Assembly: GCA_031372565.1 (NCBI GenBank)
Contig: JANMLN010000023.1
Coordinates: 1 to 23,028, forward strand
Length of the DNA stretch: 23,028 bases
DNA from: Gemmatimonadota bacterium
GTDB lineage: Bacteria; Gemmatimonadota; Gemmatimonadetes; Gemmatimonadales; Gemmatimonadaceae
Reading direction: 5' to 3'
Both the position numbers and the translations under genes were made by a program. Below the pieces are notes generated by a model, which saw only the letters and a list, made by a program, of their open reading frames with translations, was not told where the DNA came from and ran no database searches. Positions 701-23,028 of the stretch are shown here, in pieces; position 1 is the stretch's first letter, and every line of letters starts with the position of its first letter.

Positions 701-703
701 CTG

Positions 704-3664: not shown

Positions 3665-3699
3665 CAGGGAGAGTCGGCATCGCCCCGCGACGGGGACGG

Positions 3700-3712: not shown

Positions 3713-3715
3713 TTG

Positions 3716-4219: not shown

Positions 4220-4437
4220 ACTCCACAGGGGATCCACGTCCTGACCGGGGGAGCGATCCCGAGGCGCCCCCGCCCCAGCCGCCCGTCGGCTCATTCGAGG
4301 AGGCCGAGCGCTACGCCTTGGCGCTCGGAGCGCGGATGTCGTTCCGCGAACGCCTCGACTACGCGGCGCACCTGCTGGAGCTTGCCCGACGAATGCGCCC
4401 GTCGAGCGGTCCGTCCGACCCGGCTCAGACCTTGTAG
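4216..4437 (+). CDS. Small (73 aa) hypothetical partner of the nucleotidyltransferase
   Basis: ATGA overlap with the NTase stop and GGAGGA upstream. Helical core [18 protein letters not shown] resembles the (S/T)xxERL small proteins often adjacent to such NTases. Overlaps the 3' end of the epimerase by 13 bp. Confidence 0.6.
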
Positions 4438-5426: not shown

Positions 5427-5508
5427 GGAAGCGAAAGGACGGAGGCGGAAGCGGAGACTGGCGCGGGTGCCGAAGCGTACGCGACGTGCACAACGATCAT
5501 GCCGAAAG

Positions 5509-6063
5509 CTACTCGCGTCGGATGCCGGAGGCAGCGGTGAGCCCGAGCCGCTCGACCACCGACGCGGTGACCTCATCGAGTTCATCGGAGCCGGTGAGCC
5601 GATCGCGCGATGACGCCCAGCGGCGATCGGCGAGCGCCTCGCGCGGCACTTCGCGGAGCCCCGCCGCCTCGAGCGGGACGCGCCACGCCGTGTCGCGTGC
5701 CCAGGCCCACACACTCAGCTGCGCCGACAGTGCCAACTGCAGGTTGCCGCTCCACACCGTGAGCTCCAGCCCGCCCGTCCGTCCAACGGCGGGGCGCAGG
5801 CGCGCGATGCTCTCACGCACATCCGAGAGCGCCACGGATGATCCCCGCCACTCGCTGCCATCCCGGGCGCGGTGGAGCGCGACCGACACGGTGCCGGGCA
5901 TCTCGGCGCTCAGCGCGTGAAAGAGCGCGACCGACCGTTCCGCCGGCGCGTCGGTGCGAGCCACGTGCCACCCCCCCTCCCGCCAGAGGGAAAATCCATC
6001 GGTCTCGGTACGAAAGCGGTAGCCGACATCCACCTCGGCGTGCGCGCCCCGCAGGAAGCTCAC
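5509..6063 (-). CDS. Hypothetical protein
   Basis: 184-aa ORF co-oriented with, and filling the gap after, cca. GTG start lies inside the 11-bp repeat. No family recognised. Confidence 0.65.
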
Positions 6064-6084
6064 AGGAAGCTCACAGGAGGCTCA
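6052..6084. repeat. 3 x 11-bp tandem repeat CAGGA(A/G)GCTCA
   Basis: CAGGAAGCTCA 6052-6062, CAGGAAGCTCA 6063-6073, CAGGAGGCTCA 6074-6084. Confidence 0.95.
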
Positions 6085-7377: not shown

Positions 7378-8342
7378 GTGGCGAACAGTTCGCGGATCTC
7401 GTGGACCTCGAGTCCGAAGCCGAGCGCGAGCATCAGGTCGATGCGCGCCTGTTGGGCGCGTCGCGAGCCGGCGAAGATGCAGCCCATCTCGGCCAACCGC
7501 TTGCCGCCACCGGGATAGCCGTAGGTGATGCCCACGCGCCCACGCAGCGCGCGCGACGCAATGACGACCGGCTTGCCGTCGTCGATCACGCGCTGGATGC
7601 CGGGGACCATGGCGGGGGGCACGTTGCCGCGCCCCATGGCCGCGATCACGATGCCACGCGCGTCACGGCGGGATGCATCGATGAGTCGGCTGTCCGAGCC
7701 CGCCCAGACGCCGATGATGTCGACCGGCGTGGCGGGTTCGGCGGGCGCGAGCAGCGGCGGCGCTCCCGGCAGTGCTCGGCGGAAGATCACCATCCCGTCA
7801 TCGACGACGCCAACCGGACCGAGCCCCGGGCTCTCGAACGCGTCGAGCAGGTGGGTATGCGCCTTGGTCACGTCGAGTGCGGAATAGACGCGCGACCCCA
7901 TCACCACCATCGTGCCGTATCCGAATGCTTCGGGGCTCGCGGCCACGCGGACGGCATCGATCAGGTTGGCTGGCCCGTCCCACCCGAGGTCGCTCGCGTT
8001 GCGCATGGCACCGGTGAACACAACGGGTTTGTCGCTTCCGATCGAGCGCGCGACGAGATACGCGGTCTCTTCGAGCGAGTCGGTGCCGTGCGCGACCACC
8101 ACGCCATCGATCTCGGGCCGCGCGAGGCGCACCGCGATCGCTTCACGGAGGGCCCATTGCCGCTCGACCGTCATGTGCGGCCCGGGAAACGCTCCCCACT
8201 GCTCCGGTTCGAGCGGCGCGATGTCGTGAATGCCGGGTGCTGCGGCCAGAATCTCGGCAGCCGACAATGCTGGCACCGCACCCCCGGCTCGGGGGTCGAA
8301 CTTCATCGAAATGGTGCCGCCGGTAAACAGGATGGCGATCAT
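7374..8342 (-). CDS. L-asparaginase (cytoplasmic, no signal peptide)
   Basis: LFTGGTISM, HGTDSLEET, KPVVFTGAMR, WDGPANL, K.HT..AFESP. ATG at 8342 overlaps the SDR stop (ATGA). Confidence 0.92.
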   Translation of the reverse strand: MIAILFTGGTISMKFDPRAGGAVPALSAAEILAAAPGIHDIAPLEPEQWGAFPGPHMTVERQWALREAIAVRLARPEIDGVVVAHGTDSLEETAYLVARSIGSDKPVVFTGAMRNASDLGWDGPANLIDAVRVAASPEAFGYGTMVVMGSRVYSALDVTKAHTHLLDAFESPGLGPVGVVDDGMVIFRRALPGAPPLLAPAEPATPVDIIGVWAGSDSRLIDASRRDARGIVIAAMGRGNVPPAMVPGIQRVIDDGKPVVIASRALRGRVGITYGYPGGGKRLAEMGCIFAGSRRAQQARIDLMLALGFGLEVHEIRELFAT

Positions 8343-9094
8343 CCGCAGAGCACGCTGCCACCATTGACGTTCAGGATCTCGCCCGTGACATGTCGCGCAT
8401 ACGGCGTGGCGAGAAAGAGAATCGGCCCGGCGATATCGGCAGGTGACGCGACACGTCCGATCGGAATCGTCCTGGCGATGCGCTCGCGCCCACCGTTCGC
8501 GAAGGCGTCGGCGCACATCTCGGTGTCGACCCATCCCGGCGCCACGGCATTCACCGTGATGTCGCGCGGCGCGAGTTCGACCGCCAGCGACTTCACGAAC
8601 GAGATCATGGCGCCCTTGCTCGCTGCGTAATCCGAGTGGAACGCTTCCCCGCGCTGTCCCGCCGTGCTCGCCACGTGAATCAGGCGCCCGCCCGGGGACA
8701 GCACACGCGCCGCAGCGCGCGAGATGAAGAACATCGCATCGGTGTTGGCGCGCATCGTCTCGCGCCAGCGTTCGTTGGTGAGCACATCGACGCCATCGTC
8801 GGCGGTTGGCCAGATGCCGGCGTTGTGCACGAGGATGTCGAGCCCACCGAGGGCGGCCACGGTATCGGCCACCAGCGCATCGGCACCCGCGCTCATGCCG
8901 ATGTCGTGGGCAAAGGCGTGCGCCGTGGCGCCTGCTGCGCGGAGCTCGGCAACGAGTGCATCAGCCTCCGACGCGCGGGACCGATACCCGATGGAGACGG
9001 CAGCGCCGGCCTCGGCGAGGAGCCGCGTGGTGGCGAGCCCGATCCCGCGCGAGCCTCCAGTGATCAGGGCCCGGCGGCCGGTCAGCGAGAACAT
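8339..9094 (-). CDS. Short-chain dehydrogenase/reductase (FabG-like)
   Basis: TGGSRGIG, HNAG, YAASK, VNAVAPGWVDT, TGEILNVNGG. Confidence 0.93.
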   Translation of the reverse strand: MFSLTGRRALITGGSRGIGLATTRLLAEAGAAVSIGYRSRASEADALVAELRAAGATAHAFAHDIGMSAGADALVADTVAALGGLDILVHNAGIWPTADDGVDVLTNERWRETMRANTDAMFFISRAAARVLSPGGRLIHVASTAGQRGEAFHSDYAASKGAMISFVKSLAVELAPRDITVNAVAPGWVDTEMCADAFANGGRERIARTIPIGRVASPADIAGPILFLATPYARHVTGEILNVNGGSVLCG

Positions 9095-9131
9095 CAGGTT
9101 GGCTCCAGGGCGCGCGCGCCGGCAGCGTCGG

Positions 9132-9704
9132 TCATGCGCCGATGTCCGCTTCGACGAGCTCGCAGATGAGGTGTTGGACGCACAGATGCAGCTCCTGCGC
9201 GCGATCGGTCCGGTCGGTCGGGATGATCACGTTGTGATCGGCCAGCGCACGCAGCTTGCCGCCGTCACGGCTCGAGAGCGCGAGCACGGCGACGCCCTTC
9301 GTGCGCGCCGCCTCGGCCGCCAACAGCACGTTGGGCGAGTTGCCGCTCGTCGAGTGGATGATGAGCAGGTCGCCCGGCCGGGCCAGCGCCTCGACCTGCC
9401 GCGAGAAGACCTGATCGAAGCCGAGGTCGTTGCCTGCGGCGGTCAACAGCGACGTGTCGGTGGTCAGCGCGATGGCGGCCAAGGCACGGCGGTTCTTCAT
9501 GTAGCGGACCACGTACTCCGTGGCCATGTGCTGCGCGTCGGCGGCGCTGCCACCGTTGCCGCAGAAGAACAGCGTGCCGCCCCGCGCGACGGTCTCGCGC
9601 ACCATGCTGGCCGCCTGCGCGATGGCCGGCACGGTCTCCTCGATCGTGCGCTGCGCCGCGGCGGCGAGGTCGGCCAGGCGTTGGCGGATGTGGGCGTCAC
9701 TCAT
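9132..9704 (-). CDS. gmhA: D-sedoheptulose-7-phosphate isomerase
   Basis: CGNGGSAADAQH, GNDLGF..VFSRQVEA, STSGNS.N, QELH...H. Confidence 0.94.
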   Translation of the reverse strand: MSDAHIRQRLADLAAAAQRTIEETVPAIAQAASMVRETVARGGTLFFCGNGGSAADAQHMATEYVVRYMKNRRALAAIALTTDTSLLTAAGNDLGFDQVFSRQVEALARPGDLLIIHSTSGNSPNVLLAAEAARTKGVAVLALSSRDGGKLRALADHNVIIPTDRTDRAQELHLCVQHLICELVEADIGA

Positions 9705-9716
9705 GCGGCGAGAGGC

Positions 9717-10046
9717 TCAGAGGTCGGCGGCAACGGCCAGATGCGATATCTGCGCCATCGCGCGCTGTGCGCGCTCGGTAATGCGCGCCGGCTCGTCACT
9801 CTCGGCCTCGAACGCATAGGTGACGAAGGCATCGGCGGCGAGCAGGTCGAGCGCGGTCTGCCGATCGGTGCGCCCCTCGCACAGCAATCGTGAGAGCAGC
9901 GCCTCTCCCGCACAGAGCAGCACCTCGCCCATGTCGGGTGCGGGTTCGGTGGAGCGCGCGCCGAGTGCGTCGTTGAGGCGCGCCATCAACGCGTCGGGGG
10001 GCACCGGCTGCCGCGAGGCGAGCCACGCACGTGGCGTGACCGCCAT
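9717..10046 (-). CDS. Hypothetical protein (109 aa)
   Basis: ATG 2 nt after the alaS stop; fills the alaS-gmhA gap; helical, contains DLLAADAFVTYAFE. Confidence 0.75.
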   Translation of the reverse strand: MAVTPRAWLASRQPVPPDALMARLNDALGARSTEPAPDMGEVLLCAGEALLSRLLCEGRTDRQTALDLLAADAFVTYAFEAESDEPARITERAQRAMAQISHLAVAADL

Positions 10047-10048
10047 GA

Positions 10049-12823
10049 TCAGGCCGCTCCCAGCGCGCTGGTCACGATCCCCAGTGCGGCAGCGAGCGCC
10101 TCGGGGAGCTTGGCGGCGTCCGGAATGCCGGCCTGCGCCATGTGCGGCTTCCCGCCGCCCTTGCCGCCCGCGATGACCGCGAGCTCGCGCACCAACGCGT
10201 CGGCCTTCACGCCGCGATCGCGCACGTCGTCGGTGACCACCACCAGCAGCGTGTTCTTGCCGTCGGCAAACGAGGCACCAAGCACACCGACACCGCTGCC
10301 GAGCTTCTCGCGGAGTTCGTCGCCTTGGGCCTGCAACGTCTTCACGTCGGCCGCGCTCGACATCGCGCACACGAAACGCGCGGCGCCGATGCTCACCGCC
10401 TTGGCAATCAGCTGGTCGGTCTCGGCCTTCGCGCCTTCGGCCGCATTGGCTTCGAGCTTCTTTTCGAGTGCACGCCGTTCATCGGCCATGACCTTGACGC
10501 GCGCTTCGGCTTCATCGACCCGTGTGGCGCCGACCGCGTGGGCCACGCGACCGAGCGCCTGCGCCCGCTCGTGCAGCAGGGCGTAGGCGCCACGCCCGGT
10601 CAACGCCTCGATACGGCGCACGCCGGCCGCCACCCCCGACTCCTGCACGATGGTGAAGAGGCCGATCTCACCGGTGTTGCGCACGTGCGTCCCACCACAG
10701 AGTTCGGTGGAGTACCCGGGCACATCGACCACGCGGACCACATCGCCGTACTTCTCGCCAAACAGCGCCATGGCGCCCGCCGAGACGGCGTCGCGATACG
10801 GCATCTCCTTGGTGGTCACCGGGGTCGCGTGCCAGATCTGATCGTTGACTTCGCTCTCGATCAACGCCAGCACGTCGGCCTTGACCGGGCCATGGTTGGT
10901 GAAGTCGAAGCGGAGACGGTCGGGCGCCACGAGTGATCCGGCCTGGTGCACGTGCTCGCCCAGGTGCCGGCGGAGTGCGGCGTGGAGCAGGTGCGTGGCC
11001 GTGTGGTTGCGCTCCGTATCGTGGCGCGCGCCCTGCTTCACGCGCGCACGCGCATGCCCAAAGGCCATCGGGCCCTCGATCACACCGATCGCGGCGTGGC
11101 GCCCGTCGAGCTTGCGCACCTCATCGACCTGTACGCGCCAGCCTTCGCCCACGATCTCGCCGTGGTCGCTCACCTGCCCGCCCGACTCGGCGTAGAACGG
11201 CGTCTGCTCGAGCAGGACCGCCACGCGTCCCTCGCCGAGCAGGCGCACGGCGCTGACGCGTGTCTGGACGTCCACGCGCTCGTAGCCGACGAAGGTGGAG
11301 TACCCCTCGCCGCCATTCTTCTCCCACAGGTCGATGTCGCCGATCTCGTCTGCGACCACCTTGATCGCGCGCGACTTGCGTTCCTCCTGCGACCGCTTGC
11401 GCTGCCGCCCGAGCGCCTTCTCGAACTCTTCGACATCGACGTGATAGCCGCGCTCGCGAGCCATCAGCTCGGTGAGGTCGAGCGGGAAGCCGAAGCGATC
11501 GTACAGCGTGAAGGCGTCCTCGCCACTGACGGTGCCGCGCGAGTGGGTCGAGCCCTGCGTGCTGCGGCCCGGTGGCGCGAGTTCGTCGAAGCGCGACATG
11601 CCGGCGTCGATCGTGGCGAAGAAGCGTTCTTCTTCGGCACGCGTGGTGTCGATCAGGTGCTTGTGGCGCACCTGCAGCTCGGGGTAGGTCGCGCGCATCT
11701 GGTCGATCACGACCTGCACCACCGGCGCGAGCGTCGGCTCGCGACGGCCCATCAACCAGGCGTGGCGCACACCGCGACGGAGAATGCGGCGCAGCACGTA
11801 GCCGCGCCCGTCGTTGGACGGGAAGACGCCGTCGGCGAGCAGGAAGGCCACCGCGCGCGCGTGGTCGGCGATGACGCGGAACGAGGCCGGATCGACGCTG
11901 ATCGTGCGCGCCGCACTTCCAACGCCCACCGTCGCGTCGTAGTGCGCATCGCTGATGCGGCCGTGATACGGAATGCCCACCACGCGCTCCACTTCCGCGA
12001 TCATCGGCGCGAAGAGGTCGGTGTGGAAGTTGTTCGTGAGCCGCTGCATGACCGCCGCGATCCGCTCGAGCCCCGCCCCGGTGTCCACGCTCGGCTTGGG
12101 GAGCGGCACCAAGGTGCCGTCCGCCTGCCGGTCGAATTGCATGAAGACCAGGTTCCAGATCTCGAGGAAGCGCCCGACTTCAGCGCCGGCCTCGAACGCA
12201 TCGCGCGAGAAGTCGGTGATGTCGGTGCGGGTCCACTCGCCGCTCGCGCCGTCGGGGAACTTCCAGTCCGGCGCCAGGTGCGCCAAATCGACGTAGATCT
12301 CGGAGCATGGGCCGCAGGGGCCGGTGTCGGCCATCTGCCAGAAGTTGTCCTTCGCGCCCAGGCCGTAGATCCGGCTCTCGGGCACGCCGGCGACGTCGCG
12401 CCAGAGCGCGCGCGCTTCGTCGTCCTCGTGGAAGACGGTGACGCGCAGGTGCTCCTTGGGGAGCTTGAGCTCCTCGGTCACGAACTCCCAGGCGAAGCGG
12501 ATCGCATCGCGCTTGAAGTAGTCGCCGAACGAGAAGTTGCCGAGCATCTCGAAAAAGGTGTGGTGGCGAAAGGTGTGCCCCACCTGCTCGAGGTCGTTGT
12601 GCTTGCCGCCCGCCCGGACGCACTTCTGGCTGGTCGTCGCGCGGCGGTTCCCCTCGGGCGGATCTTCCATCCCAAGGAACACCTTCTTGAACTGGACCAT
12701 TCCAGCATTGGTAAACAGCAAGGTGTCGTCCCCCACGGGGACGAGCGACGACGAGGCGCGCACGGCATGCTGCTGGCGCTCGAAGTAGGCGAGAAAGCGG
12801 CGGCGGATTTCGTCGGCGTTCAT
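10049..12823 (-). CDS. alaS: Alanine--tRNA ligase
   Basis: LLFTNAGMVQFK, HHTFFEMLGNFSFGDYFK, GPCGPCSEI, DTGAGLER, editing domain HTATHLLH and ELCGGTH, C-Ala GGKGGG. Confidence 0.98.
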   Translation of the reverse strand: MNADEIRRRFLAYFERQQHAVRASSSLVPVGDDTLLFTNAGMVQFKKVFLGMEDPPEGNRRATTSQKCVRAGGKHNDLEQVGHTFRHHTFFEMLGNFSFGDYFKRDAIRFAWEFVTEELKLPKEHLRVTVFHEDDEARALWRDVAGVPESRIYGLGAKDNFWQMADTGPCGPCSEIYVDLAHLAPDWKFPDGASGEWTRTDITDFSRDAFEAGAEVGRFLEIWNLVFMQFDRQADGTLVPLPKPSVDTGAGLERIAAVMQRLTNNFHTDLFAPMIAEVERVVGIPYHGRISDAHYDATVGVGSAARTISVDPASFRVIADHARAVAFLLADGVFPSNDGRGYVLRRILRRGVRHAWLMGRREPTLAPVVQVVIDQMRATYPELQVRHKHLIDTTRAEEERFFATIDAGMSRFDELAPPGRSTQGSTHSRGTVSGEDAFTLYDRFGFPLDLTELMARERGYHVDVEEFEKALGRQRKRSQEERKSRAIKVVADEIGDIDLWEKNGGEGYSTFVGYERVDVQTRVSAVRLLGEGRVAVLLEQTPFYAESGGQVSDHGEIVGEGWRVQVDEVRKLDGRHAAIGVIEGPMAFGHARARVKQGARHDTERNHTATHLLHAALRRHLGEHVHQAGSLVAPDRLRFDFTNHGPVKADVLALIESEVNDQIWHATPVTTKEMPYRDAVSAGAMALFGEKYGDVVRVVDVPGYSTELCGGTHVRNTGEIGLFTIVQESGVAAGVRRIEALTGRGAYALLHERAQALGRVAHAVGATRVDEAEARVKVMADERRALEKKLEANAAEGAKAETDQLIAKAVSIGAARFVCAMSSAADVKTLQAQGDELREKLGSGVGVLGASFADGKNTLLVVVTDDVRDRGVKADALVRELAVIAGGKGGGKPHMAQAGIPDAAKLPEALAAALGIVTSALGAA

Positions 12824-12832
12824 AGGCGTGGA

Positions 12833-12862
12833 AAGATAACCGACGCTCCGTTAGGGTACACT
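12833..12862. promoter_or_regulatory. Back-to-back -10 boxes for alaS (-) and heme A synthase (+)
   Basis: TATCTT on - at 12838-12833, 9 nt before the alaS ATG. TACACT on + at 12857-12862, 5 nt before ATG 12868. No Shine-Dalgarno on either side of the 44-bp gap. Confidence 0.55.
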
Positions 12863-12867
12863 GCACG

Positions 12868-14025
12868 ATGGCTACGCTCGCTCAGCCCGACGCCCGTCCT
12901 GAACGCTCGGGCACACCGCTCGTCGCACGCGACAGGCACCGTGCGCCCGGTGCCCCACTCGAAAGCTCGGCCGCCGATGCCAGCGTACGCCGCTGGCTCG
13001 TGGCCACCGCGTGGAGCGTGGTCGCCGCCCTCGTGGTGGGGGGCATCACCCGGCTCACCGACTCGGGGCTCTCGATCACCGTGTGGGCGCCTGTGGCCGG
13101 TATCCTGCCGCCGCTCTCCCACGCCGACTGGGAGCGCGCTTTTCAGGCCTACCTCCAGATCCCCGAGGCGCAGACGGTCCACCGCGGCATCAGCATGGGC
13201 GGCTTTCAGGCGCTCTTCTGGTGGGAGTGGTTTCACCGCCTGGTCGCGCGCGGCGTGGGGCTGGTCATCGCCCTGCCCTACCTCTGGCTCGTGGCGCGGG
13301 GACAGCTGCGCGGGCGGTCGATGGTCGCGCTGGGCGCCCTGCCCGTGCTCGTGGCCGCGCAGGGCGCGCTGGGGTGGTACATGGTCAAGAGTGGCCTGTC
13401 GGTGAAGACCGACGTGAGCCAGTACCGGCTGGTGGCGCACCTGCTCCTGGCGCTCGTGATCTTCGTGATCGCCGTGTGGGGCGCTACAACGCGTGGTCGC
13501 GCCAACCGTCCGGAGGCGATGCGAGCATCCGACCGCGCCACCCGTCCGCTCGCGCTCGGCGCGACCCTGCTTGCCGCGCTCGCCTTCCTGACCATCGCCT
13601 CGGGCGGGTTCGTCGCCGGCCTCGATGGCGGCAAGGTGTACAACGAGTTCCCCCTCATGGGCGGACAGCTCGTGCCGCGCGAGTACGCGCAGTTGGCCCC
13701 GCTCTGGCAGAACTGGTTCGACAACCCGGTGGCCGCGCAGTTCAATCACCGGACGCTCGCGTTCGTCACGTTGGCCGCCGCGTGGGCGCTCTATCTGCTC
13801 GGTCGGCGCGCACTGTCTGGCGTGCCCGCCATTGCGGTCCGGCGCGTGGCGCTCGTAACCGTGCTGCAGGTGGGGCTCGGGATCACCACGCTGCTCCTGT
13901 CCGTGCCGGTGGCAGTGGCGGCGCTGCACCAGTTGGGGGCGGTGGCGCTGCTGGCGGCGGCACTCGTGGCGGCCAACGAGGCGCACGCAGCCGCCCACAC
14001 GCCGCTCGCGATCCGCGACCGCTAG
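12868..14025 (+). CDS. ctaA: Heme A synthase (COX15/CtaA, type 2)
   Basis: GGITRLTDSGLSI, WEWFHR, QGALGWYMVKSGL, VSQYRL..HL, GGFVAGLD, QFNHR, ALHQ; multiple TM helices. Shares the CTAG stop with convergent recX. Confidence 0.94.
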   Translation: MATLAQPDARPERSGTPLVARDRHRAPGAPLESSAADASVRRWLVATAWSVVAALVVGGITRLTDSGLSITVWAPVAGILPPLSHADWERAFQAYLQIPEAQTVHRGISMGGFQALFWWEWFHRLVARGVGLVIALPYLWLVARGQLRGRSMVALGALPVLVAAQGALGWYMVKSGLSVKTDVSQYRLVAHLLLALVIFVIAVWGATTRGRANRPEAMRASDRATRPLALGATLLAALAFLTIASGGFVAGLDGGKVYNEFPLMGGQLVPREYAQLAPLWQNWFDNPVAAQFNHRTLAFVTLAAAWALYLLGRRALSGVPAIAVRRVALVTVLQVGLGITTLLLSVPVAVAALHQLGAVALLAAALVAANEAHAAAHTPLAIRDR

Positions 14026-14603
14026 TCCTCGGCTTCGCCGTCCGCGTCGCCCTCAGCGGCCGCTTCTCGGTCGAGTCTGCGCAGGGTCTCGCGGATCGTA
14101 TCCCCCGCGAACCCGCGCCGCGCCAGAAAGGCCGTCAACCGCCGCGCCCGTGTGCGCGGATCGAGCGCCGAAAGCGACCTGAGCTTCTGGCGCGCCGCAC
14201 GTTCCACGCTCGAGCCTTCGTCCACGAGCCCCTCGTCGACGCGCACCTCCGCGATTGCCTCGGCCGCCATGGCTCGATCGACTCCCCGACGCGTCATCTC
14301 CTGCTGGACGCGCCGCACCGACGCGCGGCGGCTCACCAGATAGGTGCGCGCCACTTGGCGGGCGTAGATCGCGTCGTTGACCAGCCCCGCCTGCACGACG
14401 CGCTGCACCGTGGTCAGGGCGATGTCCGGGGCGTGGCCCTTTTCCTTGAGGCGGCGCAGAAGCCCTGCCTCGGAGTAGCTCCGCCGTTCGAGCATGCGGA
14501 GCGCCTGCGCTCGGCATGCGGCCGCTTGTTCGGCGGGTGACGGGGGCGGCGCGTCGTCCGGGGGGGCGGGCGGGCGGGGGCGTCGGGAGGTGAAGCGGGG
14601 CAT
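14022..14603 (-). CDS. recX: Regulatory protein RecX
   Basis: Downstream of recA; AL..LERR.YSE..L.RRL..KG, GLVND..YA, L.AFLARRGF. Confidence 0.88.
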   Translation of the reverse strand: MPRFTSRRPRPPAPPDDAPPPSPAEQAAACRAQALRMLERRSYSEAGLLRRLKEKGHAPDIALTTVQRVVQAGLVNDAIYARQVARTYLVSRRASVRRVQQEMTRRGVDRAMAAEAIAEVRVDEGLVDEGSSVERAARQKLRSLSALDPRTRARRLTAFLARRGFAGDTIRETLRRLDREAAAEGDADGEAED

Positions 14604-14626
14604 GGGTGGAGGGGGAGAAAAAAAGC

Positions 14627-14653
14627 AGGTCCTTCGCTGCGCTCAGGACGACA
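14627..14653 (-). repeat. Single REP-like element followed by a U7 tract
   Basis: Minus strand reads TGTCGTCCTGAGCGCAGCGAAGGACCT with stem GTCCT/AGGAC, resembling the widespread GTCATCCTGAGCG(C/A)AGCGAAGGATCT repeat (recalled). It is followed by GCTTTTTTT just upstream of recX. Confidence 0.7.
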
Positions 14654-14661
14654 GGGGGTGG

Positions 14662-14741
14662 AAAAAGTGCCGAGGGGCCGCTGAGCGAACGACGTGGGGA
14701 TCCGGGCCCACACGACGATCGAACAACGAACCCCCCGGCAC
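14662..14741 (-). terminator. Long imperfect hairpin plus U5 downstream of recA
   Basis: Arms GTGCCGGGGGGTTCGTTGTTCGATCGTCGTGTGGG and CCCCACGTCGTTCGCTCAGCGGCCCCTCGGCAC, then TTTTT on the minus strand. Several non-Watson-Crick positions are G-U wobbles only on the recA-sense strand. Confidence 0.65.
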
Positions 14742-14764
14742 GACTTCCGGCGGACCAGCGCGGC

Positions 14765-15808
14765 CTAGTCTTCGGCGGCCTCGCTCGCGTCAAGCTCCGG
14801 CTTGCCGCCGACGCCCAACACCACCTTCACCTGCTCCTCGATCTCCAGCATCATCTTGACGTTGTCCTTGAGGAACATCTTGGCGTTCTCACGCCCCTGC
14901 CCGATGCGCTGGCCCTTGTAGCTGTACCAGGCGCCGGACTTCTCGATGATCCCCGTCTCCGAGCCGATGTCCACCAGCAGCGAGACGTGGCTGATCCCCT
15001 CGGCGTACATGATGTCGAACTCGGCTTGCTTGAACGGCGGCGCCACCTTGTTCTTGACCACCTTCACGCGGACGTGCGACCCGATCACGTCCTCCTTCTC
15101 CTTGACCGGCCCGACGCGGCGGATGTCGAGGCGGACCGAGGCGTAGAACTTGAGCGCCTTGCCGCCGGTCGTCGTTTCGGGGCTGCCGAACATGACGCCG
15201 ATCTTCTCGCGCAGCTGGTTGATGAAGACCACCGAGGTCTTCGAGCGCGCGATGGCACCGGTGAGCTTGCGGAGCGCCTGACTCATGAGCCGTGCCTGCA
15301 GGCCCATGTGCGACTCGCCCATCTCCCCCTCGATTTCCGCCTTCGGGACGAGCGCGGCCACCGAGTCGACGACCACGACGTCCACCGCGCCGGAGCGCAC
15401 GAGGATCTCGCAGATCTCGAGCGCCTGCTCGCCCGTGTCGGGCTGGCTGATGAGGAGGTTCTGGACGTCCACGCCAAGCTTGGCGGCGTAGTCGGTGTCG
15501 AGAGCGTGTTCGGCGTCGATGAAGGCGGCCACACCGCCCGCCTTCTGCGCATTGGCCACGATGTGCAGACAGAGTGTCGTCTTGCCGCTCGACTCGGGAC
15601 CGTAGATCTCCGTGATGCGCCCGCGGGGGATCCCACCGATGCCGATGGCGGCATCCAGGTTGATCGCGCCCGTCGAGATGCACTCGATCGGAGCACGGGT
15701 ATCCGTGCCCAGCCGCATGATGGAACCCTTGCCGTGCGACTTCTCGATCTGCGCGATGGCCAGAGAGAGCGCCTTCTTGCGATCGTCCTGCAGCGTGTTG
15801 CTAGCCAT
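14765..15808 (-). CDS. recA: Recombinase RecA
   Basis: [65 protein letters not shown] at 15808 preceded by AAGGTGG. Confidence 0.99.
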
Positions 15809-15857
15809 GACCCACCTTTGGGGTTGGACGTTTGAGCTCTGGCCAGGCTCGACAGGA

Positions 15858-15923
15858 AAGATACCCTGCCCCGGCGCTTTCGGAGACACCCGAAGAAAGT
15901 ACGAAGCTCCCTCGGGAAAGCAA
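15858..15923 (-). promoter_or_regulatory. recA promoter region with a candidate operator
   Basis: On the minus strand: TTGCTT-16 nt-TACTTT, then palindrome TTCGG-GTGTCT-CCGAA, then a second -10-like TATCTT. Confidence 0.55.
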
Positions 15924-15927
15924 GCCA

Positions 15928-16293
15928 CTAATTGAGCCGAAATGCATCGGGCACATGCCGCACCCGAACCGACTCACCCTGCACCAGCACCCCGACGACA
16001 TCAAACCGGTAGGCCTCACCGGGGCGCCCGTGGCGTTCAATCCAGACGTGAGCAGATCGCGCTAACTCTTTCTGCTTCTTCCAGTTAACTGCCTCCACTG
16101 GATCACCAAACCGGTCCCCATGGCGCGCCTTGACCTCGACAAACGCCACCAGGCCGTCCCGCTCCACCACGAGGTCAAGGTCCCGGTGTCCGCTCCGGAA
16201 GCGACGGTTCATCACCCGCCACCCCTGTCGCGTGAGCCACCGAGCCGCGACCCGTTCTCCCAGTTCTCCGAAGGCCTGCCTGACCGCTGACAT
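15928..16293 (-). CDS. yraN: YraN family (UPF0102) putative endonuclease
   Basis: G..GE..AARWL...[26 protein letters not shown]...AF. Start ATG at 16293, with TACCGT 6 nt upstream. Confidence 0.92.
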
Positions 16294-16431
16294 GAGCGTA
16301 CGGTATCCGCCTTCGACCGTGAGTGGTAACCGCGGAATTGCACCACCTATCATTCGCACGCAACGGCGAATGAGATCGAGGTTGCGCTCACACCTCTGGC
16401 CCGTGCAGCACGTTCGCGCTTGATTGCCGCG

Positions 16432-17652
16432 ATGCACATCGTGCTCGCTCCCGTTGGCACGCGCGGCGACGTGGAACCCCTGCTGGCGCTCAGCGACACG
16501 CTCCGCTCACGCGGCCACACCTGTACACTCGCCGCCCCGCGCACCTTCGCGACGGTCGCGGAGCACGAGGGACTGCCCTTCGTGTCGCTTGGAGCAGGCT
16601 TCGACGAGTTCGCGCGCGGCATGCACGACGAGACCCGTGTGATCCTCGCCTTCCGGCACACGCTGCGTGATCAGTACGACGGGCTCATGCGCGCGGCGCA
16701 GGGAGCCGACGCGATTCTCGGCGCCATGCTGTGTTTGGCGGGGCCCTCCGTGGCGCGCGTCCACCGCATCCCATGGCTCTTCGCGGGATTCAGCCCGCAC
16801 TATCTGCGGTCGCGTCTGCAGGTGCCTGCCGGCGTGCCCGTTCGCGCCTTGCCCCCATGGGTGCTCGGCGCGCTGAATGTCGTGCAGGACCTCGCCGTCC
16901 CGATCGCCATGCGCCCCTGGATCGCCGAGGAACGGCGGCTGGGCTTTCCGCCACCCGACGGCGTCTGGCAGCACATGGCGCTCAATGGGGAGTTGCTGCT
17001 CGGCTACGACGAGGAGCTGCTGCCCAACCCTGCCGACGCGACGGGTCGCCTCAACCCGATCGGCGTACTACGTCGCAATGGCGCGTCCGCACCGCTCGAT
17101 GCGGAGCTCGCCCGTTTCCTCGAGGCGGGACCTCCGCCCGTGTACCTCGGCTTCGGATCCATGTCGCACAACGATCCGGGCGCGCTCATGTCCGTGCTGC
17201 TGGGCAGCGTGGCCCGTACCGGTGCGCGCGCCGTAATCAACGCCGGCTGGTCGGGGCTCGCGGCGGAACAGCTACCATCAAGTGTCATCGTTGTGCCGCA
17301 TGCGCCACACGACGCGCTCTTTCCGCAGTGCGCCGGAGCCGTGCACCACGGCGGCGCAGGCACGCTGCACGCCGCCGCGCTGGCCGGCGTACCCCAAGCG
17401 GTGGTGCATCACTGGGCGGATCAGATCCACCACGGCTGGCGCGTCGAGACGCTCGGCATCGGTCCCGGCCCCACGACGATTCGCGCGCTCAATGCCGAGT
17501 GGCTGGACGCGACCATTCGGCGATTCAGCTCCGATGCCGCCATGCGCGAACGCGCGGCGGCGCTGGGTCACCGCATGCGGTCCCGACTCGGTGGGGCGGA
17601 GCGGGCTGCCGATCTCGTCGAGCGGGTCGTACACGCGCATCGGCTGGCGTAG
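16432..17652 (+). CDS. GT1-family glycosyltransferase (Glyco_transf_28 N-term; sterol-glucosyltransferase/aglycone type)
   Basis: GTRGDVEP, FLEAGPPPVYLGFGSM, PHDALFP, VHHGGAGT, AGVPQ, ADQ. Confidence 0.92.
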   Translation: MHIVLAPVGTRGDVEPLLALSDTLRSRGHTCTLAAPRTFATVAEHEGLPFVSLGAGFDEFARGMHDETRVILAFRHTLRDQYDGLMRAAQGADAILGAMLCLAGPSVARVHRIPWLFAGFSPHYLRSRLQVPAGVPVRALPPWVLGALNVVQDLAVPIAMRPWIAEERRLGFPPPDGVWQHMALNGELLLGYDEELLPNPADATGRLNPIGVLRRNGASAPLDAELARFLEAGPPPVYLGFGSMSHNDPGALMSVLLGSVARTGARAVINAGWSGLAAEQLPSSVIVVPHAPHDALFPQCAGAVHHGGAGTLHAAALAGVPQAVVHHWADQIHHGWRVETLGIGPGPTTIRALNAEWLDATIRRFSSDAAMRERAAALGHRMRSRLGGAERAADLVERVVHAHRLA

Positions 17653-17683
17653 TCACGCCTGCCGCCAACCACGCGCGCGGCAG

Positions 17684-19222
17684 CTACTCCTTGACCGCGG
17701 CCGAATCGACGGTCACGTCAAACGGTGCCGTGCGCACCACACCACCCCGGCGGAACTGCACCCAGACCCGATAGTGCCCCGCCTTCGGAAAGGCGTACGG
17801 AAAGCTGAACGATCCGCTGAGCGCCTCGCCACGGGCCATCCCCGGCATGCCCGCGTGTGCCGCCATCCCCGAATCGGCCGACCGCATGCGCTTGGCCAGC
17901 GTGCCGCGCGCGGAGTCGGCGTCGGTACGTCCGGTGAGCGCGGCCTGCGCTGCCAAGGAGGTCGTCCCGATGGGGTGCAGGTGCACGAAGACGTCCATCG
18001 AGTCGCGCACCACGACCGCGTGCGCGGCCATGCCGAGGAACGGCTCCACCGTAGCGGGCGCCCCTGCCTTGTCGCGGAGCACGAAGGCAAGCGGCGCATC
18101 AACGCCGGCCACGATGGGCTGTTTGCCGCGCTCCCAGTTGAGCACACTGCCGTCGTCGAGCGTCGCCGTTTCACCGGTCGCGCCACCAACGAAGCTGGCG
18201 TCATCCGGGTCGCTCATCGGCGTCGTGCCGGGGGGCAGCGTCACGTCCATCTTGCCGACCATCGTCTCCGCATAGCCCGTCTCGCGGACAATGTCGGCGA
18301 AGACGCGGTAGCGGCCAGCCGGGACGCCGGGCAGGGCGCCGGTAAAGTGGAGCGAGTCGAGCATCCGCGGGTGCAGGTGCGCGAGCGCGCCCAGGTCGTC
18401 ACGCACCGCGAAGAGGTGCATCATCTTGCCGTGGTCGGGAATGAACGGCGCCCAGCGGCGCTCGTTCATCGTGGCGGTGTCCATGCTGAAGTCGAGCTGC
18501 CGAACACCGGCGCTGTCGCGCACGGCGACGATCGCCTCGACCGGCGTGTACAAGCCACGCGCGTATGCCTCGTTCTCCTTGTTCCACCAGAAACGGCCGA
18601 GCGTCAGGAGGGTGGTGACGATGACGGCCGCGATGCCGCGCGCAATCCACGAGCGCTTGCGCTGCGCCGTGTCGGGCTCGATACCGGGATCGAGCGTCGA
18701 TTCGCGCGACGCCGCCCCGACGATCGTGAGCAGCCCGACCACGAGGAAGACGCCGAAGGCGGCCAACCCGATTCCCATCTTGGGGTCCATGGTCAGCACC
18801 GTGGTCGCGGCCGCCACGAAGGGCACCACGGCCGTTCCCTTCCCGGCGGAGCCTTCAACGTTGACGCGGACCGAGTAGCTGCCCGACGACATGATCCAGA
18901 GCTGATCACTCCAGAGCGTGCTGTCGCCGACGACGCGCCGCAACTGGTCCGGTGGCGGTGCACTCTTCTCGCCGCCGTTCCAGATGTACGGCGCGGCCGA
19001 TACCGCCGTGACGCCACTCCCCTTCACCCGCACGACGACATCGGCGCGCGCCGGAATCACGGCGGGGGCACGGATGATGACGCGCACCGGGTATGGACCG
19101 GCATCGCCTTCGAAGTAGGTGTCGGGGCTCCCGACGTGTGCCGACGCGAGCAGCGCACCCGATGCGATCAGCGCCGCGAAGGCGACGCGCTGCCAGCCGC
19201 GAGCGAGGCTATCGCTTGACAC
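17684..19222 (-). CDS. Exported, membrane-anchored putative metal-binding protein (N-terminal His, two TM helices, duplicated H...HLHP domains)
   Basis: GTG at 19222 overlaps the upstream gene end. Signal peptide ..ALLASA|HVGSPD; two hydrophobic helices; motifs DHGKMMHLF..AHLHP..GRYRVFAD and LGMAAHAV..VHLHP..GHYRVWVQF. Confidence 0.85.
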   Translation of the reverse strand: MSSDSLARGWQRVAFAALIASGALLASAHVGSPDTYFEGDAGPYPVRVIIRAPAVIPARADVVVRVKGSGVTAVSAAPYIWNGGEKSAPPPDQLRRVVGDSTLWSDQLWIMSSGSYSVRVNVEGSAGKGTAVVPFVAAATTVLTMDPKMGIGLAAFGVFLVVGLLTIVGAASRESTLDPGIEPDTAQRKRSWIARGIAAVIVTTLLTLGRFWWNKENEAYARGLYTPVEAIVAVRDSAGVRQLDFSMDTATMNERRWAPFIPDHGKMMHLFAVRDDLGALAHLHPRMLDSLHFTGALPGVPAGRYRVFADIVRETGYAETMVGKMDVTLPPGTTPMSDPDDASFVGGATGETATLDDGSVLNWERGKQPIVAGVDAPLAFVLRDKAGAPATVEPFLGMAAHAVVVRDSMDVFVHLHPIGTTSLAAQAALTGRTDADSARGTLAKRMRSADSGMAAHAGMPGMARGEALSGSFSFPYAFPKAGHYRVWVQFRRGGVVRTAPFDVTVDSAAVKE

Positions 19223-20417
19223 GCGCCATCCAGCCGCCCCAGGCGAGTCCCAGCCGGCTCGAGAAGGTGGCGAGCACGGCGGCAATGAGCAGCCCCTGTG
19301 CAAAGATCACCGCATCGAAGCCGGGCTGGGCACCACGACGAGGAGCGCCGAGCCAGAACTGGTAGCTCCACGGCCCCATGCCTGCGGTGTACGGGAACTC
19401 GCCGCCGTTGAAGAAGCCGTTCCGTGCCGCCGGACTGAGCATGAAGATCGACCACGGATACTGTGCGGCCACATGGAGTGCGACGAATACGACGCCCAGC
19501 GCGGCAGCGACGAGCCAGCGGTTGCGGCCGCGCAGGCGCTGGATCACGAGATCCACGCCGAAGGCGGGCACGATCAGCCAGACCGGGAAGTACGGCGGCC
19601 ACATGAACGTGCGAGGGTTGTAGATGGGGGCGAGCATCGGCCGCGCCTCGATCGTGCGCAACACGATGCCCATGATCAGCCAGAGCCCCATGTACATGAG
19701 CGCCGCGCCGGTGGCGGGCCACCGCAACCTGCCCGCGGAGGCAAAGCCGACCAGCAAGACGGGAAAGACCGCCCCCCACACCTGGTAGTAGAGCGCTCGG
19801 TGCTGTTCGTTGGGCCACGAGTACTCGAGCGTGGCGCAGGCCAGAATGAAGCAGAGCACCCCGCCAGCCGCCGCGTACATCCAGGCATCGCGCAGCTCGT
19901 TCACCTTGCCGGCCGACCGATTCTGTGCGGACAAGGTCAGGGTCAGCGCGCCGATCATGATGCCCAGCATCCCCGAGAGCAGCACCATGTGCGGCGGGCT
20001 CACGATCTTGACGTCGAGACCGTAGGCCGCGTGCCACCAGTCGTCAAACGGCGCCGACAACAGCATGGCGAAGGTGCCCCAGATCGTGATCCACGCCCCG
20101 AGGGGTCCAAGGAAGCCCCAGAACTTGACGCTCGCCGCGCGATCCTCAGGCGTGCCCGCGAATGTGGTCCGCAGCACGACGAAGCCGCAGGCGAGCCCGG
20201 CGGTGACGCCGCTCGCGTACTCGACCAGATGCGGCGCCGACCAGAAGGTGTCGCGCCCGATCGTCATGTGCCACGAGATGTCCCAGAGCAGCCCCACCAC
20301 GATCCCCGCCGCGCTCGCCAGGATCGTGGCGATGAAGCCGGTGGCGGTTGCCACGTTCGCCTTCGCGCGCGTGGCGCCGACCGCGTAAGTCGCTTCACGT
20401 CCGAGTGTCGTGCTCAT
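19209..20417 (-). CDS. Polytopic membrane protein with two PmoC-like DxxWH...H motifs
   Basis: About 9-10 hydrophobic segments; WDISWHMTIGRDTFWSAPH and FDDWWHAAYGLDVKIVSPPH. AGAGGAG SD upstream; start is ATG 20417 (TTG 20426 is an alternative). Confidence 0.85.
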   Translation of the reverse strand: MSTTLGREATYAVGATRAKANVATATGFIATILASAAGIVVGLLWDISWHMTIGRDTFWSAPHLVEYASGVTAGLACGFVVLRTTFAGTPEDRAASVKFWGFLGPLGAWITIWGTFAMLLSAPFDDWWHAAYGLDVKIVSPPHMVLLSGMLGIMIGALTLTLSAQNRSAGKVNELRDAWMYAAAGGVLCFILACATLEYSWPNEQHRALYYQVWGAVFPVLLVGFASAGRLRWPATGAALMYMGLWLIMGIVLRTIEARPMLAPIYNPRTFMWPPYFPVWLIVPAFGVDLVIQRLRGRNRWLVAAALGVVFVALHVAAQYPWSIFMLSPAARNGFFNGGEFPYTAGMGPWSYQFWLGAPRRGAQPGFDAVIFAQGLLIAAVLATFSSRLGLAWGGWMARVKR

Positions 20418-20451
20418 GCGCAGCAATACTCCTCTGGGGGGCGCCCGGTTT

Positions 20452-20478
20452 CAACACCCGAATCATAATCAGGGTTGT
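20452..20478 (-). promoter_or_regulatory. Candidate -10 (TATGAT) inside an imperfect inverted repeat, upstream of the membrane-protein operon
   Basis: Minus strand CAACCCTGATTATGATTCGGGTGTTG, with TATGAT at 20467-20462 flanked by ACCC-N12-GGGT. Confidence 0.45.
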
Positions 20479-22232
20479 CAGTCCGCGGCCGCGACAGGCG
20501 CCCCCTTCCGCGCCACATAGTCGCCGATGACCAGCATGTCCATCCGCGTGCGCAGATAGCAGGCAATCGCCTCCGCCGGGGTGCAGACCACCGGCTCGTT
20601 CTCGTTGAAGCTGGTGTTGAGGACCACCGGGAGCCCGGTGCGCGCCTCGAACCGCCGGATCACCTCGTAGTAGTCCGGGGCAGCCTCGCGGGACACGGTC
20701 TGCAGCCGGCCCGTGCCATCCACGTGCGTGACGGCGGGCAACCGCTCGCGCCACGCCGGCCGCACCTTGTACACGTGCAGCATGAACGGCGACGGGTGCC
20801 CGCTCTCGAAGAGCTCCTCCTGACGCTCGGCCAGCACCGCCGGCGCGAACGGGCGGAACCACTCCCGGCGCTTGATCCGCGCGTTGAGAATCTCCTTCAT
20901 GTCGGTCCGCCCCGGGTGCGCGAGGATCGAGCGGGCGCCGAGCGCGCGGGGCCCCCACTCCATCCGCCCGTTGAACCAGCCGACCACGTCGCCCGCCGCG
21001 ATGGCGTCGGCCGTGGCATCGAGCCGCGCCTCGCGATCGACACGCTGCGCCACGACTCCGGCGTCGTCGAGCGCGCGTTGTATCTCCGCTTCGGTGAACG
21101 CAGGCCCGAGGTAGGCGTTCTCCAGCGTGTGGCGCGGCCCGTCCGCGAGAATCGACTGGCTCGTGTAGAGCGCGGCACCCAGCGCCAGGCCGTCGTCGCC
21201 GGAGGCAGGGTGCACCACGCTCCGGCGGAAGGGCGTCTCAACCTCGATCATCCCGTTGGCCACGCTGTTGAGCGCGCAGCCACCGGCCAGCACGAGGTCG
21301 GTGGTGCCGGGGACGTCGACGGCCAGCCGGCGGACGAGATGCAGATACGCGCGCTCGAAGGCGTGCTGCACCCCCCAGGCGATATCCATGTCGCGCTGCG
21401 TGATCTCGGCGGACGGATCACGCGGTTCGCCGAACCGCTCGCGCATCCGATCACCCCAGAGACGCGCCATGGTGGCGCGCCCGTTCGCGTCGATCGTGAA
21501 GGCCTCCGTGGTGCCGAACGGCAGGAGCCAACCCGGTGTGAGCGTGAAACCATCATCGGTCAACTGCACCAGTTGGTCCGCCCAGTCGCGCAATGCGTCC
21601 GTGCCGTACGGTGCCAGTCCCATCACCTTCCCTTCGTCGCCGTACTCGCCATACCCGATGAACTGGCACGCCATGGCGTACAGGATGCCGAGCGAATCGG
21701 GCAAGAAGGTGCGATGGGTGACGTCGATGCGACCGCCGGTGCAGCGCGCGCGCATGGCCGACACGAAGTCACCCGAGCCGTCGACGGACATGCCGGCGCA
21801 CGACTCGAATGGCGACGTGAAGTACGCCGAGGCGATATGGGCGAGATGATGTTCGACGTGAACGGCGCGGAAGGTGAGTGCGCTGGCCTCGGTCCCCATC
21901 TCGCGCGCGACGGTCTCGTGCAGGCTGCCCAGGGCGCGACGCGAGAGAAGCATCCGGCCGAAAGTGAGCAGCTGCCCGGGACGTTGCAGCGCGGCCGCGA
22001 TCTTTGCGCCGCGATTGGCCTTCGTGTCGCGGCCAATGGCCACGAATTCCACGTCGCCCATGGTGAGCCCCGCCATGCGCAGGCACTCGGCGATGGCCAG
22101 CCGCGGAAAGCCCGCCCAGTACTTCTGCCGGTTGAGCCGCTCCTCGGCAATGGCCGCGACCGGCCGCCCGTCGATGACGAGGGCGGCGGACGCACCGGGG
22201 TGGAGCGCGTTGATGCCGAGGATGACGGCCAC
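20478..22232 (-). CDS. Carbamoyltransferase, NodU/CmcH/TobZ family
   Basis: AAIAEERLNR.K, HVEHHLAH, VDGSGD, GKVMGLAPYG, AGGCALN, GRMEWGPRALGARSIL, KRREWFRPFAP, HVDGTGR.QTV, LNTSFN. Confidence 0.95.
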   Translation of the reverse strand: MAVILGINALHPGASAALVIDGRPVAAIAEERLNRQKYWAGFPRLAIAECLRMAGLTMGDVEFVAIGRDTKANRGAKIAAALQRPGQLLTFGRMLLSRRALGSLHETVAREMGTEASALTFRAVHVEHHLAHIASAYFTSPFESCAGMSVDGSGDFVSAMRARCTGGRIDVTHRTFLPDSLGILYAMACQFIGYGEYGDEGKVMGLAPYGTDALRDWADQLVQLTDDGFTLTPGWLLPFGTTEAFTIDANGRATMARLWGDRMRERFGEPRDPSAEITQRDMDIAWGVQHAFERAYLHLVRRLAVDVPGTTDLVLAGGCALNSVANGMIEVETPFRRSVVHPASGDDGLALGAALYTSQSILADGPRHTLENAYLGPAFTEAEIQRALDDAGVVAQRVDREARLDATADAIAAGDVVGWFNGRMEWGPRALGARSILAHPGRTDMKEILNARIKRREWFRPFAPAVLAERQEELFESGHPSPFMLHVYKVRPAWRERLPAVTHVDGTGRLQTVSREAAPDYYEVIRRFEARTGLPVVLNTSFNENEPVVCTPAEAIACYLRTRMDMLVIGDYVARKGAPVAAAD

Positions 22233-22238
22233 GAGGCC

Positions 22239-22247
22239 AAGTTAGCA
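22239..22247 (-). promoter_or_regulatory. Extended -10 giving a probably leaderless carbamoyltransferase mRNA
   Basis: Minus strand reads TG-C-TAACTT-GGCCTC-GTG, with the start codon at 22232. Confidence 0.55.
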
Positions 22248-22317
22248 GGGAGCGATGGACAGCCGCACGTGGGCGCGGGGGGCCCTGTGCTCGTGCACGT
22301 GCCGTGAAGCGCCGCGA

Positions 22318-22908
22318 CTAGTGCGCCGGCCCCACAAATGCCGCGACAGCGTCGATGACCTCGGGCGCCTTGAGCATCCGGCGATGCCCGCCGACGTCCA
22401 CCTCGAGATACATCGCCTTGGGCCAGTGGTCGGCAATCGTGCGACCGTCCGACACCGGCACCTCGGCGTCATGCCGATCATGCACGATCAGCGCCGGCAC
22501 GCGAAAGCCGCCACCGGAGCGTCGAATGTCCACTTCGTCGGGATGCGCGCCCGTGATCTCGGCCAGCCGCTCGCGCATGTGACGGCCGATGCGCGGCTCG
22601 ATGCCGATGAGCGTGGCGAAGCGGTCGAGTACGTCCGGCAGCGAGGCCGGCGCGCCCAGGAGCACGGCGCGCTCGGTGCGAAGCCCGCGTGTGAGTGCGA
22701 TCGCCGCGGAAGCCGCGCCCATGGAGTGCGCGACCACCGTGTGGTACGTACCGACGTGCTGCTGCAACGTCTGCAGCGCCTCGGCGAAGGCGATGGGATG
22801 GGCGCGCTTGCCCGCCGAGCGACCATGCGCGGGACCGTCGAGCGCCACGACGCGATGGCCCGCCTCGATGAGCGGCTCGGCGATGCGCCCGAGTTGCGTG
22901 CCCCGCCC
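22318..22908 (-). CDS. Alpha/beta hydrolase, N-terminal part missing or corrupted at the window end
   Basis: GRGTQL, VVALDGPAHGRS, nucleophile AHSMG, acid HDRHDAEVP, His in GGHRRML. The frame is open up to an in-frame TAG at 22909-22911 inside G-rich noise. Confidence 0.85.
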   Translation of the reverse strand, partial: GRGTQLGRIAEPLIEAGHRVVALDGPAHGRSAGKRAHPIAFAEALQTLQQHVGTYHTVVAHSMGAASAAIALTRGLRTERAVLLGAPASLPDVLDRFATLIGIEPRIGRHMRERLAEITGAHPDEVDIRRSGGGFRVPALIVHDRHDAEVPVSDGRTIADHWPKAMYLEVDVGGHRRMLKAPEVIDAVAAFVGPAH

Positions 22909-23028
22909 CTACCCCCCCGGCCGCAGGCCGATGGGCGCGCGAGTGGGGGGCCCCCACACCCCCATAAGCAACGTGTCTTCGACGCGCCCGGTGCGGGCGG
23001 GGGCGCGGGGGGCCAGATACCCGGCGGG

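Follow-up and report, generated by a model that had tools for sequence, protein, structure and literature searches.

The 23,028-nucleotide stretch of DNA analysed here (the window; contig JANMLN010000023.1 of the Gemmatimonadota bacterium assembly GCA_031372565.1, forward-strand positions 1 to 23,028) encodes on its reverse strand a ten-helix membrane protein with two Asp/His/His motifs, which are the subject of this report, and a partner protein. The membrane-protein gene occupies 19209..20426 (-). Its longest open reading frame (ORF) specifies 405 residues from TTG 20426; the database copy of the protein (P0002) has 402 residues, which implies a start at ATG 20417. The partner gene (17684..19222, -) specifies 512 residues from a likely GTG start at 19222. 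A homologue of it lies directly downstream of the membrane-protein gene at 78 of 80 genomic loci from five phyla, and the contigs of the other two loci (L001 and L027) end first. The two genes overlap by 14 nucleotides (19209..19222, -), comprising the 3' end of the membrane-protein gene with its stop codon and the likely start of the partner; this overlap suggests translational coupling.

Paired motifs on homologous hairpins

Translation of 19989-20285 (-) yields WDISWH-MTIGRDTFWSAP-H and, 79 residues on, DDWWH-AAYGLDVKIVSPP-H, confirming the two motifs reported by the initial annotation together with the RDT inside the first. Motif 1 (20229..20285, -) reads W48-D49-x3-H53-x4-R58-D59-T60-x5-H66, that is, D49-x3-H53-x12-H66 with codons 20282-20229 and an internal R58-D59-T60. 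Motif 2 (19989..20045, -) reads D128-x3-H132-x13-H146 (codons 20045-19989). When the protein was shuffled 200,000 times, at least one D-x3-H-x12/13-H pattern arose in 0.3% of the shuffles and two arose in none.

The AlphaFold2 model of the membrane protein is of high predicted quality (predicted local distance difference test score, pLDDT, 93.1; predicted template modelling score, pTM, 0.91). In this model, motif 1 is borne by helical hairpin A (20157..20342, -), whose first helix (29-55) has D49 and H53 at its end and whose second (64-90) has H66 at its start. Motif 2 is borne in the same manner by hairpin B (19917..20102, -), D128 and H132 standing at the end of the first helix (109-135) and H146 at the start of the second (144-170). 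Exactly two membrane passes thus separate the motif loops, which lie on the same face, as had been proposed from the spacing alone, and not on opposite faces. Which face this is can be judged from charge. Across an alignment of the window protein with 59 full-length relatives (A1; the relatives were chosen from 269, 7 and 52 coming from two family searches), Lys plus Arg make up about 0.17 per residue in the predicted inside loops and about 0.07 in the predicted outside loops. This density favours an N-in topology, in which both motif loops would be periplasmic.

The two hairpins are homologous repeats. Comparison of residues 25-95 with residues 100-172 by hhalign gives 91% (E 1.1e-6) and pairs D49 with D128, H53 with H132 and H66 with H146; in five controls against other regions of the protein, the value is at most 1%. 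In a BLAST comparison with the Leifsonia homologue, hairpin B cross-matches hairpin A (E 1.2e-4). Both results make tandem duplication, the term used in the initial annotation, the correct one: the two motif hairpins are a true internal duplication.

Conservation is likewise in line with the earlier proposal that these residues act as ligands. In A1, D49 and H66 are kept in 60/60 sequences, D128 in 59/60 (Glu once, never Asn), H132 in 54/60 (Gln four times, Thr and Ser once each), H146 in 54/60 (Gln four times, Phe and Glu once each) and H53 in 53/60 (Asp three times, Glu and Gln twice each). A second set, the window protein with 70 relatives whose sequences were translated from GTDB genomes, has all six in 71/71, and R58, D138 and D292 likewise; all seven annotated distant homologues borne on plasmids keep the six as well. 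The C-terminal half of the protein (residues 176-405; 19212..19901, -) consists of six helices with conserved H209 and D292 and has no sequence relative in the PDB, its profile search returning noise only.

The membrane-protein family is very large and unnamed, and no Pfam or NCBIfam model covers it. The window protein has no Pfam or NCBIfam match at E<=1 and no PDB match by phmmer; in the ESM Atlas, both it and the partner match unnamed clusters only. Relatives number 4127 proteins at E<=1e-3 among 8000 scored candidates, and an exhaustive search gave 1909 cluster representatives at 50% identity, 917 of them at E<=1e-10. At least 594 of 600 stretches examined from species genomes contain the family. 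Among the matches listed, the sources use no name other than 'hypothetical protein', and Pfam domains are absent throughout. No published description of the family was found in the literature, judged by titles and abstract openings.

By record titles, the 80 loci belong to Gemmatimonadota (51, with Palauibacter counted here), Acidobacteriota (24), Verrucomicrobiota (3), Eisenbacteria (1) and Methylomirabilota (1). Cultured, non-methanotrophic hosts include Chondrinema, Streptomyces, Mycolicibacterium and Leifsonia. An actinobacterial branch (L088:6959-8404 and 113 relatives, including P0271), whose members are all named 'hypothetical', has proteins of about 455-500 residues that share the two-hairpin core; further on, a late membrane helix is followed by a conserved A-H-A-H-D-P-G, an extracytoplasmic domain of about 120 residues and a final helix. 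A kinship between this fused periplasmic domain (which starts AHAHDPG) and the N-terminal domain of the partner was considered and rejected (hhalign 0.2%).

Relation to the copper sites of PmoC and AmoC

PmoC and AmoC are the active-site subunits of the copper membrane monooxygenases (CuMMOs), among them particulate methane monooxygenase (pMMO) as well as ammonia monooxygenase (AMO). For Methylococcus capsulatus PmoC, PMC12576850 gives the CuC ligands as Asp156/His160/His173 and the CuD ligands as Asn227/His231/His245, with Arg165 nearby. For Nitrosospira briensis AmoC, PMC12801151 gives Asp134/His138/His151 and Asn205/His209/His223, and describes both sites as occupied and about 8 Å apart, earlier structures having predicted 4.5-5.6 Å. 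PmoC therefore already has D-x3-H-x12-H followed by N-x3-H-x13-H, with the spacings found in the window protein. The statement in the initial annotation that PmoC carries a single Asp/His/His set is accordingly wrong and out of date, given the CuC and CuD assignments in these two sources (PMC12576850, PMC12801151).

Profile searches point to the same relatives. The A1 profile finds four matches in the PDB at E<=10, all of them AmoC or PmoC chains (best E 0.0014), with the alignment restricted to motif 1. A broader profile (A7; 45 members, 23 of the window type including the window protein and 22 actinobacterial) finds 14 matches at the same threshold, 13 of which are AmoC/PmoC chains with E from 2.1e-4 to 0.22 (the leading values being 2.1e-4, 2.3e-4, 1.1e-3, 2.8e-3 and 3.2e-3); the fourteenth is unrelated (E 1.6). 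The A7 alignment covers both hairpins, query residues 28-146 against AmoC 122-243, and places D49/H53/H66 on the D, H and H of DASWHQVIIRDTSFTPSH and D128/H132/H146 on the N, H and H of NEWGHAFWFMEELFSAPLH. Chain 9pxf_G differs from the numbering of the paper by a constant offset of 18, so the aligned residues are exactly the six published ligands. The motifs were thus rightly called PmoC-type, each of the six residues aligning one-to-one with a CuC or CuD ligand.

Pfam searches agree in direction. Below threshold, AmoC is matched more often than any other family: by 15 of the 60 members of one set (best E 0.0011) and 15 of the 45 members of the other (best 2e-4). Other families are matched by at most two members each in the 60-member set, and FixH comes next in the 45-member set with five. 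As negative controls, profiles of the C-terminal half and of the partner gave no PmoC match in the PDB.

Similarity to PmoC/AmoC (PF04896) thus extends over a four-helix core of two hairpins, in which all six ligand positions align. D-x3-H-x12-H (CuC) is followed about 70-80 residues later by (N/D)-x3-H-x13-H (CuD), and SWH, RDT and P-x-H ends are shared. The window protein has the complete CuC pattern, Asp-x3-His-x12-His with Arg-Asp-Thr; at CuD, the spacing and both His agree and align, and the first ligand is Asp rather than Asn. Judged from this alignment, Asp for Asn in the second site is the only predicted ligand difference from the two-site pocket of PmoC. The suggestion that two ligand sets would depart from canonical pMMO is therefore unsupported, since the window protein would, by this alignment, reproduce that pocket with this one exchange. 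The other differences lie elsewhere. The window protein has 405 residues and ten helices, with the core N-terminal and six more helices after it, compared with about 250-270 residues for PmoC/AmoC; its family scores below the Pfam threshold, has hairpins that are still recognisably alike and lacks pmoA or pmoB neighbours. The hosts (Gemmatimonadota, Acidobacteriota, Verrucomicrobiota, Bacteroidota and Actinomycetota) are mostly not known methane or ammonia oxidisers.

Leaving the cellular role aside, homology to the CuC and CuD pocket of PmoC/AmoC, and with it a metal-binding function of the motifs, is the probable reading of these sequence comparisons. The motifs would then supply the metal ligands in a core of four helices, formed by the two homologous hairpins, and this core would be a remote homologue of the pocket in the active-site subunit of CuMMOs. 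The pocket would lie at the periplasmic membrane surface and might hold a single copper ion or two, spaced a few angstroms apart, the carboxylate of D128 presumably taking the place of the amide found in CuMMOs.

Four conserved His at one membrane level on four helices could also recall a haem b site, which would make the protein a membrane redox carrier. This is very improbable: the His stand at helix ends and are paired with invariant Asp, exactly as in the copper sites of PmoC, and no haem protein was matched in the Pfam, PDB profile or fold searches.

The partner, copper contexts and the role of the pair

The partner offers further evidence. Among its 78 genes, 13 run off the contig and five have no start by the rule used; in all 60 that were extracted, a signal-like segment is followed by H-[VIL]-G-[ST]. 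In the window this junction reads LLASA|HVGSPD, the codon of the invariant His at the predicted mature N-terminus lying at 19136..19138 (-). An alignment of 58 partners shows H29, H264, H269, H282, H284 and H401 to be invariant. The mature protein would thus probably begin with an invariant His, cleavage being predicted from the signal-like segment, and such a residue would form a classic copper-binding terminus.

In the partner model (pLDDT 91.6), a helical hairpin (helices 147-174 and 185-222) stands between a first beta-sandwich and two more beta-sandwiches, which are homologous repeats of each other (hhalign 93.6%). It is by this helical hairpin that the partner would be anchored, and the membrane protein may work in complex with it. 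The repeats (about residues 224-512; 17684-18560, -) contain the invariant His clusters D-H-G-K-x-M-H...A-H-L-H-P and M-G-M-x-x-H...V-H-L-H-P, which probably form additional metal sites; these His-rich repeats gave no match to a named family.

Sub-threshold signals in the partner are of copper-related type. YtkA-like matches occur in 11/58 partners, the best at 22.7 bits where the cutoff is 25.9, and CopC matches in 6/58; seven of the eight YtkA matches at E<=0.05 fall in the N-terminal domain, which has no match above threshold to PF13115 or PF04234. The PDB entry 9ll2, a 'copper resistance protein', matches the partner profile at E 0.036.

A search for longer family proteins, that is, possible fusions, returned three proteins. 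Two of these, P0393 (806 residues) and P0391 (715 residues), are single metagenome ORFs in which portions of the membrane protein and of the partner occur together. They were not counted as evidence of natural fusion, since a frameshift in overlapping genes could yield such ORFs.

Copper genes appear around plasmid-borne homologues. A tblastn search of plasmids with residues 25-175 matched 11 records, of which eight were inspected: four have unambiguous copper genes within 7 kb, two have weaker hints and two have none. The unambiguous loci (Streptomyces sp. F2, S. mirabilis, Leifsonia and M. vanbaalenii) carry multicopper oxidase, cupredoxins, HMA proteins, heavy-metal P-type ATPases, or copC immediately upstream. 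The weaker hints, in M. aubagnense and M. chubuense, are a YHS domain, CopY-family regulators and TlpA/CcdA. The Rubrobacter locus has no copper genes, and the Chondrinema litorale plasmid has the same pair of membrane protein and partner, as genes OQ292_RS32125 and OQ292_RS32130. At three of the eight plasmid loci (L083, L085 and L088), a pyridoxal phosphate-dependent cysteine synthase and a major facilitator superfamily (MFS) transporter lie as a pair near the homologue; a similar pair belongs to a mycobacterial copper-responsive regulon. As for the 80 genomic loci, a wider conserved operon was rejected, no flanking family besides the pair itself recurring in more than 8/80.

Several results weigh against a PmoC-like metal pocket in these proteins. 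No family member reaches the gathering score of Pfam AmoC, and the window protein has no match to it at E<=1. The E-values in the PDB are modest, and the 13 AmoC/PmoC matches are homologous to one another and so amount to a single line of evidence. With hairpin B on its own (A3; residues 98-175, 71 sequences), a profile search of the PDB found no PmoC at E<=10 and gave only ribosomal eS8 noise. No PmoA- or PmoB-type gene is detectable among the window ORFs, in the partner or in the conserved flank clusters of the relatives. The partner fold search returned generic Ig/FnIII stacks only, and the 80 genomic loci have no conserved copper gene nearby, Redoxin (7), DsbD_TM (4) and SURF1 (3) being the nearest hints. 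Plasmids are rich in metal islands anyway, and the plasmid homologues are only 27-36% identical over the core.

Also on this side stands a subclade of five of the 60 A1 sequences (P0160, P0182, P0219, P0238 and P0267), which jointly exchanges H53 for Asp or Glu, H132 for Gln, Thr or Ser and H146 for Gln or Glu, and retains D49, H66 and D128 (or Glu). The sites change together, as five of the seven A1 sequences without H53 also lose H132 and H146. Going by these substitutions, the family members cannot all share one site; those with replaced His may bind a different metal or have a different role.

The fold search of the whole model adds a further point against such a pocket, having no PDB match at E<=1e-3 and giving PmoA/AmoA chains, not PmoC, as the best. 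PmoA/AmoA chains make up 10 of the top 12 matches, further chains of an already listed entry being left aside beyond rank 10. They include 3rfr_B, 7s4h_B, 6cxh_B and 9cl6_B and have E 0.017-0.26, probability 0.96-1.0, template modelling score (TM-score) on the target 0.39-0.56 and 14-20% identity. Fold matches to PmoA/AmoA and a sequence signal to PmoC/AmoC could be reconciled in that the two CuMMO membrane subunits may share a fold. At the end of its first helix, PmoA has the GDWDFW motif that the A189 primer encodes. Against this structural likeness, with its TM-score of up to 0.56, stands the absence of any PmoA/AmoA sequence signal in the Pfam and PDB profile searches and a Foldseek E of 0.017 or worse. 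A PmoA-like C-terminal half was also considered and is without sequence support, its profile (A4) finding only noise in the PDB. Against a viral library, the membrane protein gave only noise (probability at most 0.54).

If the pocket binds metal, the metal need not be copper. Asp/His/His triads bind zinc well, the CuC site of PmoC held zinc in crystal structures, and in the subclade just described His gives way to Gln, Asp or Glu. Even so, the protein is highly unlikely to be a membrane metallohydrolase, or some other enzyme with zinc or iron at these sites: the sole detectable relatives are copper enzymes, the contexts of the distant homologues are copper-specific (CopC, multicopper oxidase, cupredoxin), and the N-terminal His of the partner is a copper-type feature.

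As to what the pair does with copper, periplasmic copper handling, whether acquisition or delivery to or from the membrane, is put forward tentatively, as a role that may or may not hold, by analogy with CopC/CopD/YtkA-type systems. CopC/CopD and YcnJ-type systems would work alike in combining a polytopic membrane protein with a periplasmic beta-sandwich that begins with His; the partner has the sub-threshold YtkA and CopC signals, and one homologue lies directly after an annotated copC. The likeness has limits. The membrane core is PmoC-like, and the window protein has no match to CopD (PF05425) at E<=1, nor does CopD figure in the 25 families listed for the sets of 60 and 45 members. The partner, for its part, has a membrane anchor of its own and two additional His-rich domains.

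Oxidase chemistry is the other role to be weighed. In that case, the two genes would encode a divergent copper membrane oxidase or monooxygenase, with the membrane protein as its catalytic subunit in the membrane, the CuC/CuD-like pocket as the active site and the partner in the place of PmoB. Homology to the active-site pocket of pMMO/AMO with its six ligands kept, the predominance of PmoA/AmoA among the fold matches and a gene order of membrane subunit followed by B-like protein, which recalls xmoCAB, speak for it. So does the layout of the partner, which has in common with PmoB the signal peptide and the N-terminal His, a beta-sandwich in the periplasm, a pair of membrane helices and a second region in the periplasm. 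Homology of the partner to PmoB was however found to be unsupported: no PmoB/AmoB Pfam signal occurs in the 58 members, no PmoB is among the top 50 fold matches, and neither Pfam nor the fold search gives a cupredoxin domain or PmoB family match. Sequence signals to the AmoA and PmoB families are likewise missing, and the partner fold was not cupredoxin-like in the fold search. There is no conserved downstream metabolism, an iron-containing alcohol dehydrogenase (Fe-ADH) being present in only 5/80 loci; the hosts are ordinary heterotrophs of five phyla, and the surroundings of the actinobacterial homologues are copper-resistance islands instead of catabolic clusters. A catalytic oxidase is thus rather unlikely, and copper handling is favoured over it because of the actinobacterial contexts and the lack of a conserved catabolic neighbour.

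A bolder, evolutionary form of the oxidase idea is quite unlikely. It would see in the module a minimal, ancestral-type CuMMO relative, with a still-symmetric CuC/CuD pocket in a PmoA-like fold and a PmoB-like partner in C-A-B order, acting as a copper oxidase or oxygenase in abundant soil heterotrophs; both PmoC and PmoA would derive from such a protein.

The probable PmoC-like pocket is of interest in its own right. Whether CuC and CuD form one dinuclear centre is debated for the hard-to-handle pMMO and AMO, and PMC12801151 discusses such a site as a looming possibility. The family would keep the same six-ligand pocket in a different protein and carries a natural Asn-to-Asp variant of CuD, and its cultured non-methanotrophic hosts offer tractable material for metal-site chemistry. 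It may also give a clue to the origin of the CuMMO membrane subunits, and a function, probably copper-related, would attach to thousands of 'hypothetical proteins' in major soil phyla.

Other genes of the window

A scan of 16400-23028 found no promoters or terminators. Upstream of the membrane-protein gene, a NodU/CmcH-type carbamoyltransferase (20478-22232, -; Pfam E 6e-71 and 2e-39) ends 52 nucleotides before the membrane-protein ORF. Its membership in the module was rejected, as among the 80 loci it recurs only in the closest relative, L001. The remainder of the window (2-17652) consists of ordinary housekeeping genes, which encode an HflX-type GTPase, UDP-N-acetylglucosamine (UDP-GlcNAc) 2-epimerase, MgsA, a CCA/poly(A) polymerase, asparaginase, alanyl-tRNA synthetase (AlaRS), CtaA (12868-14025), RecX, RecA and a GT28-type glycosyltransferase.

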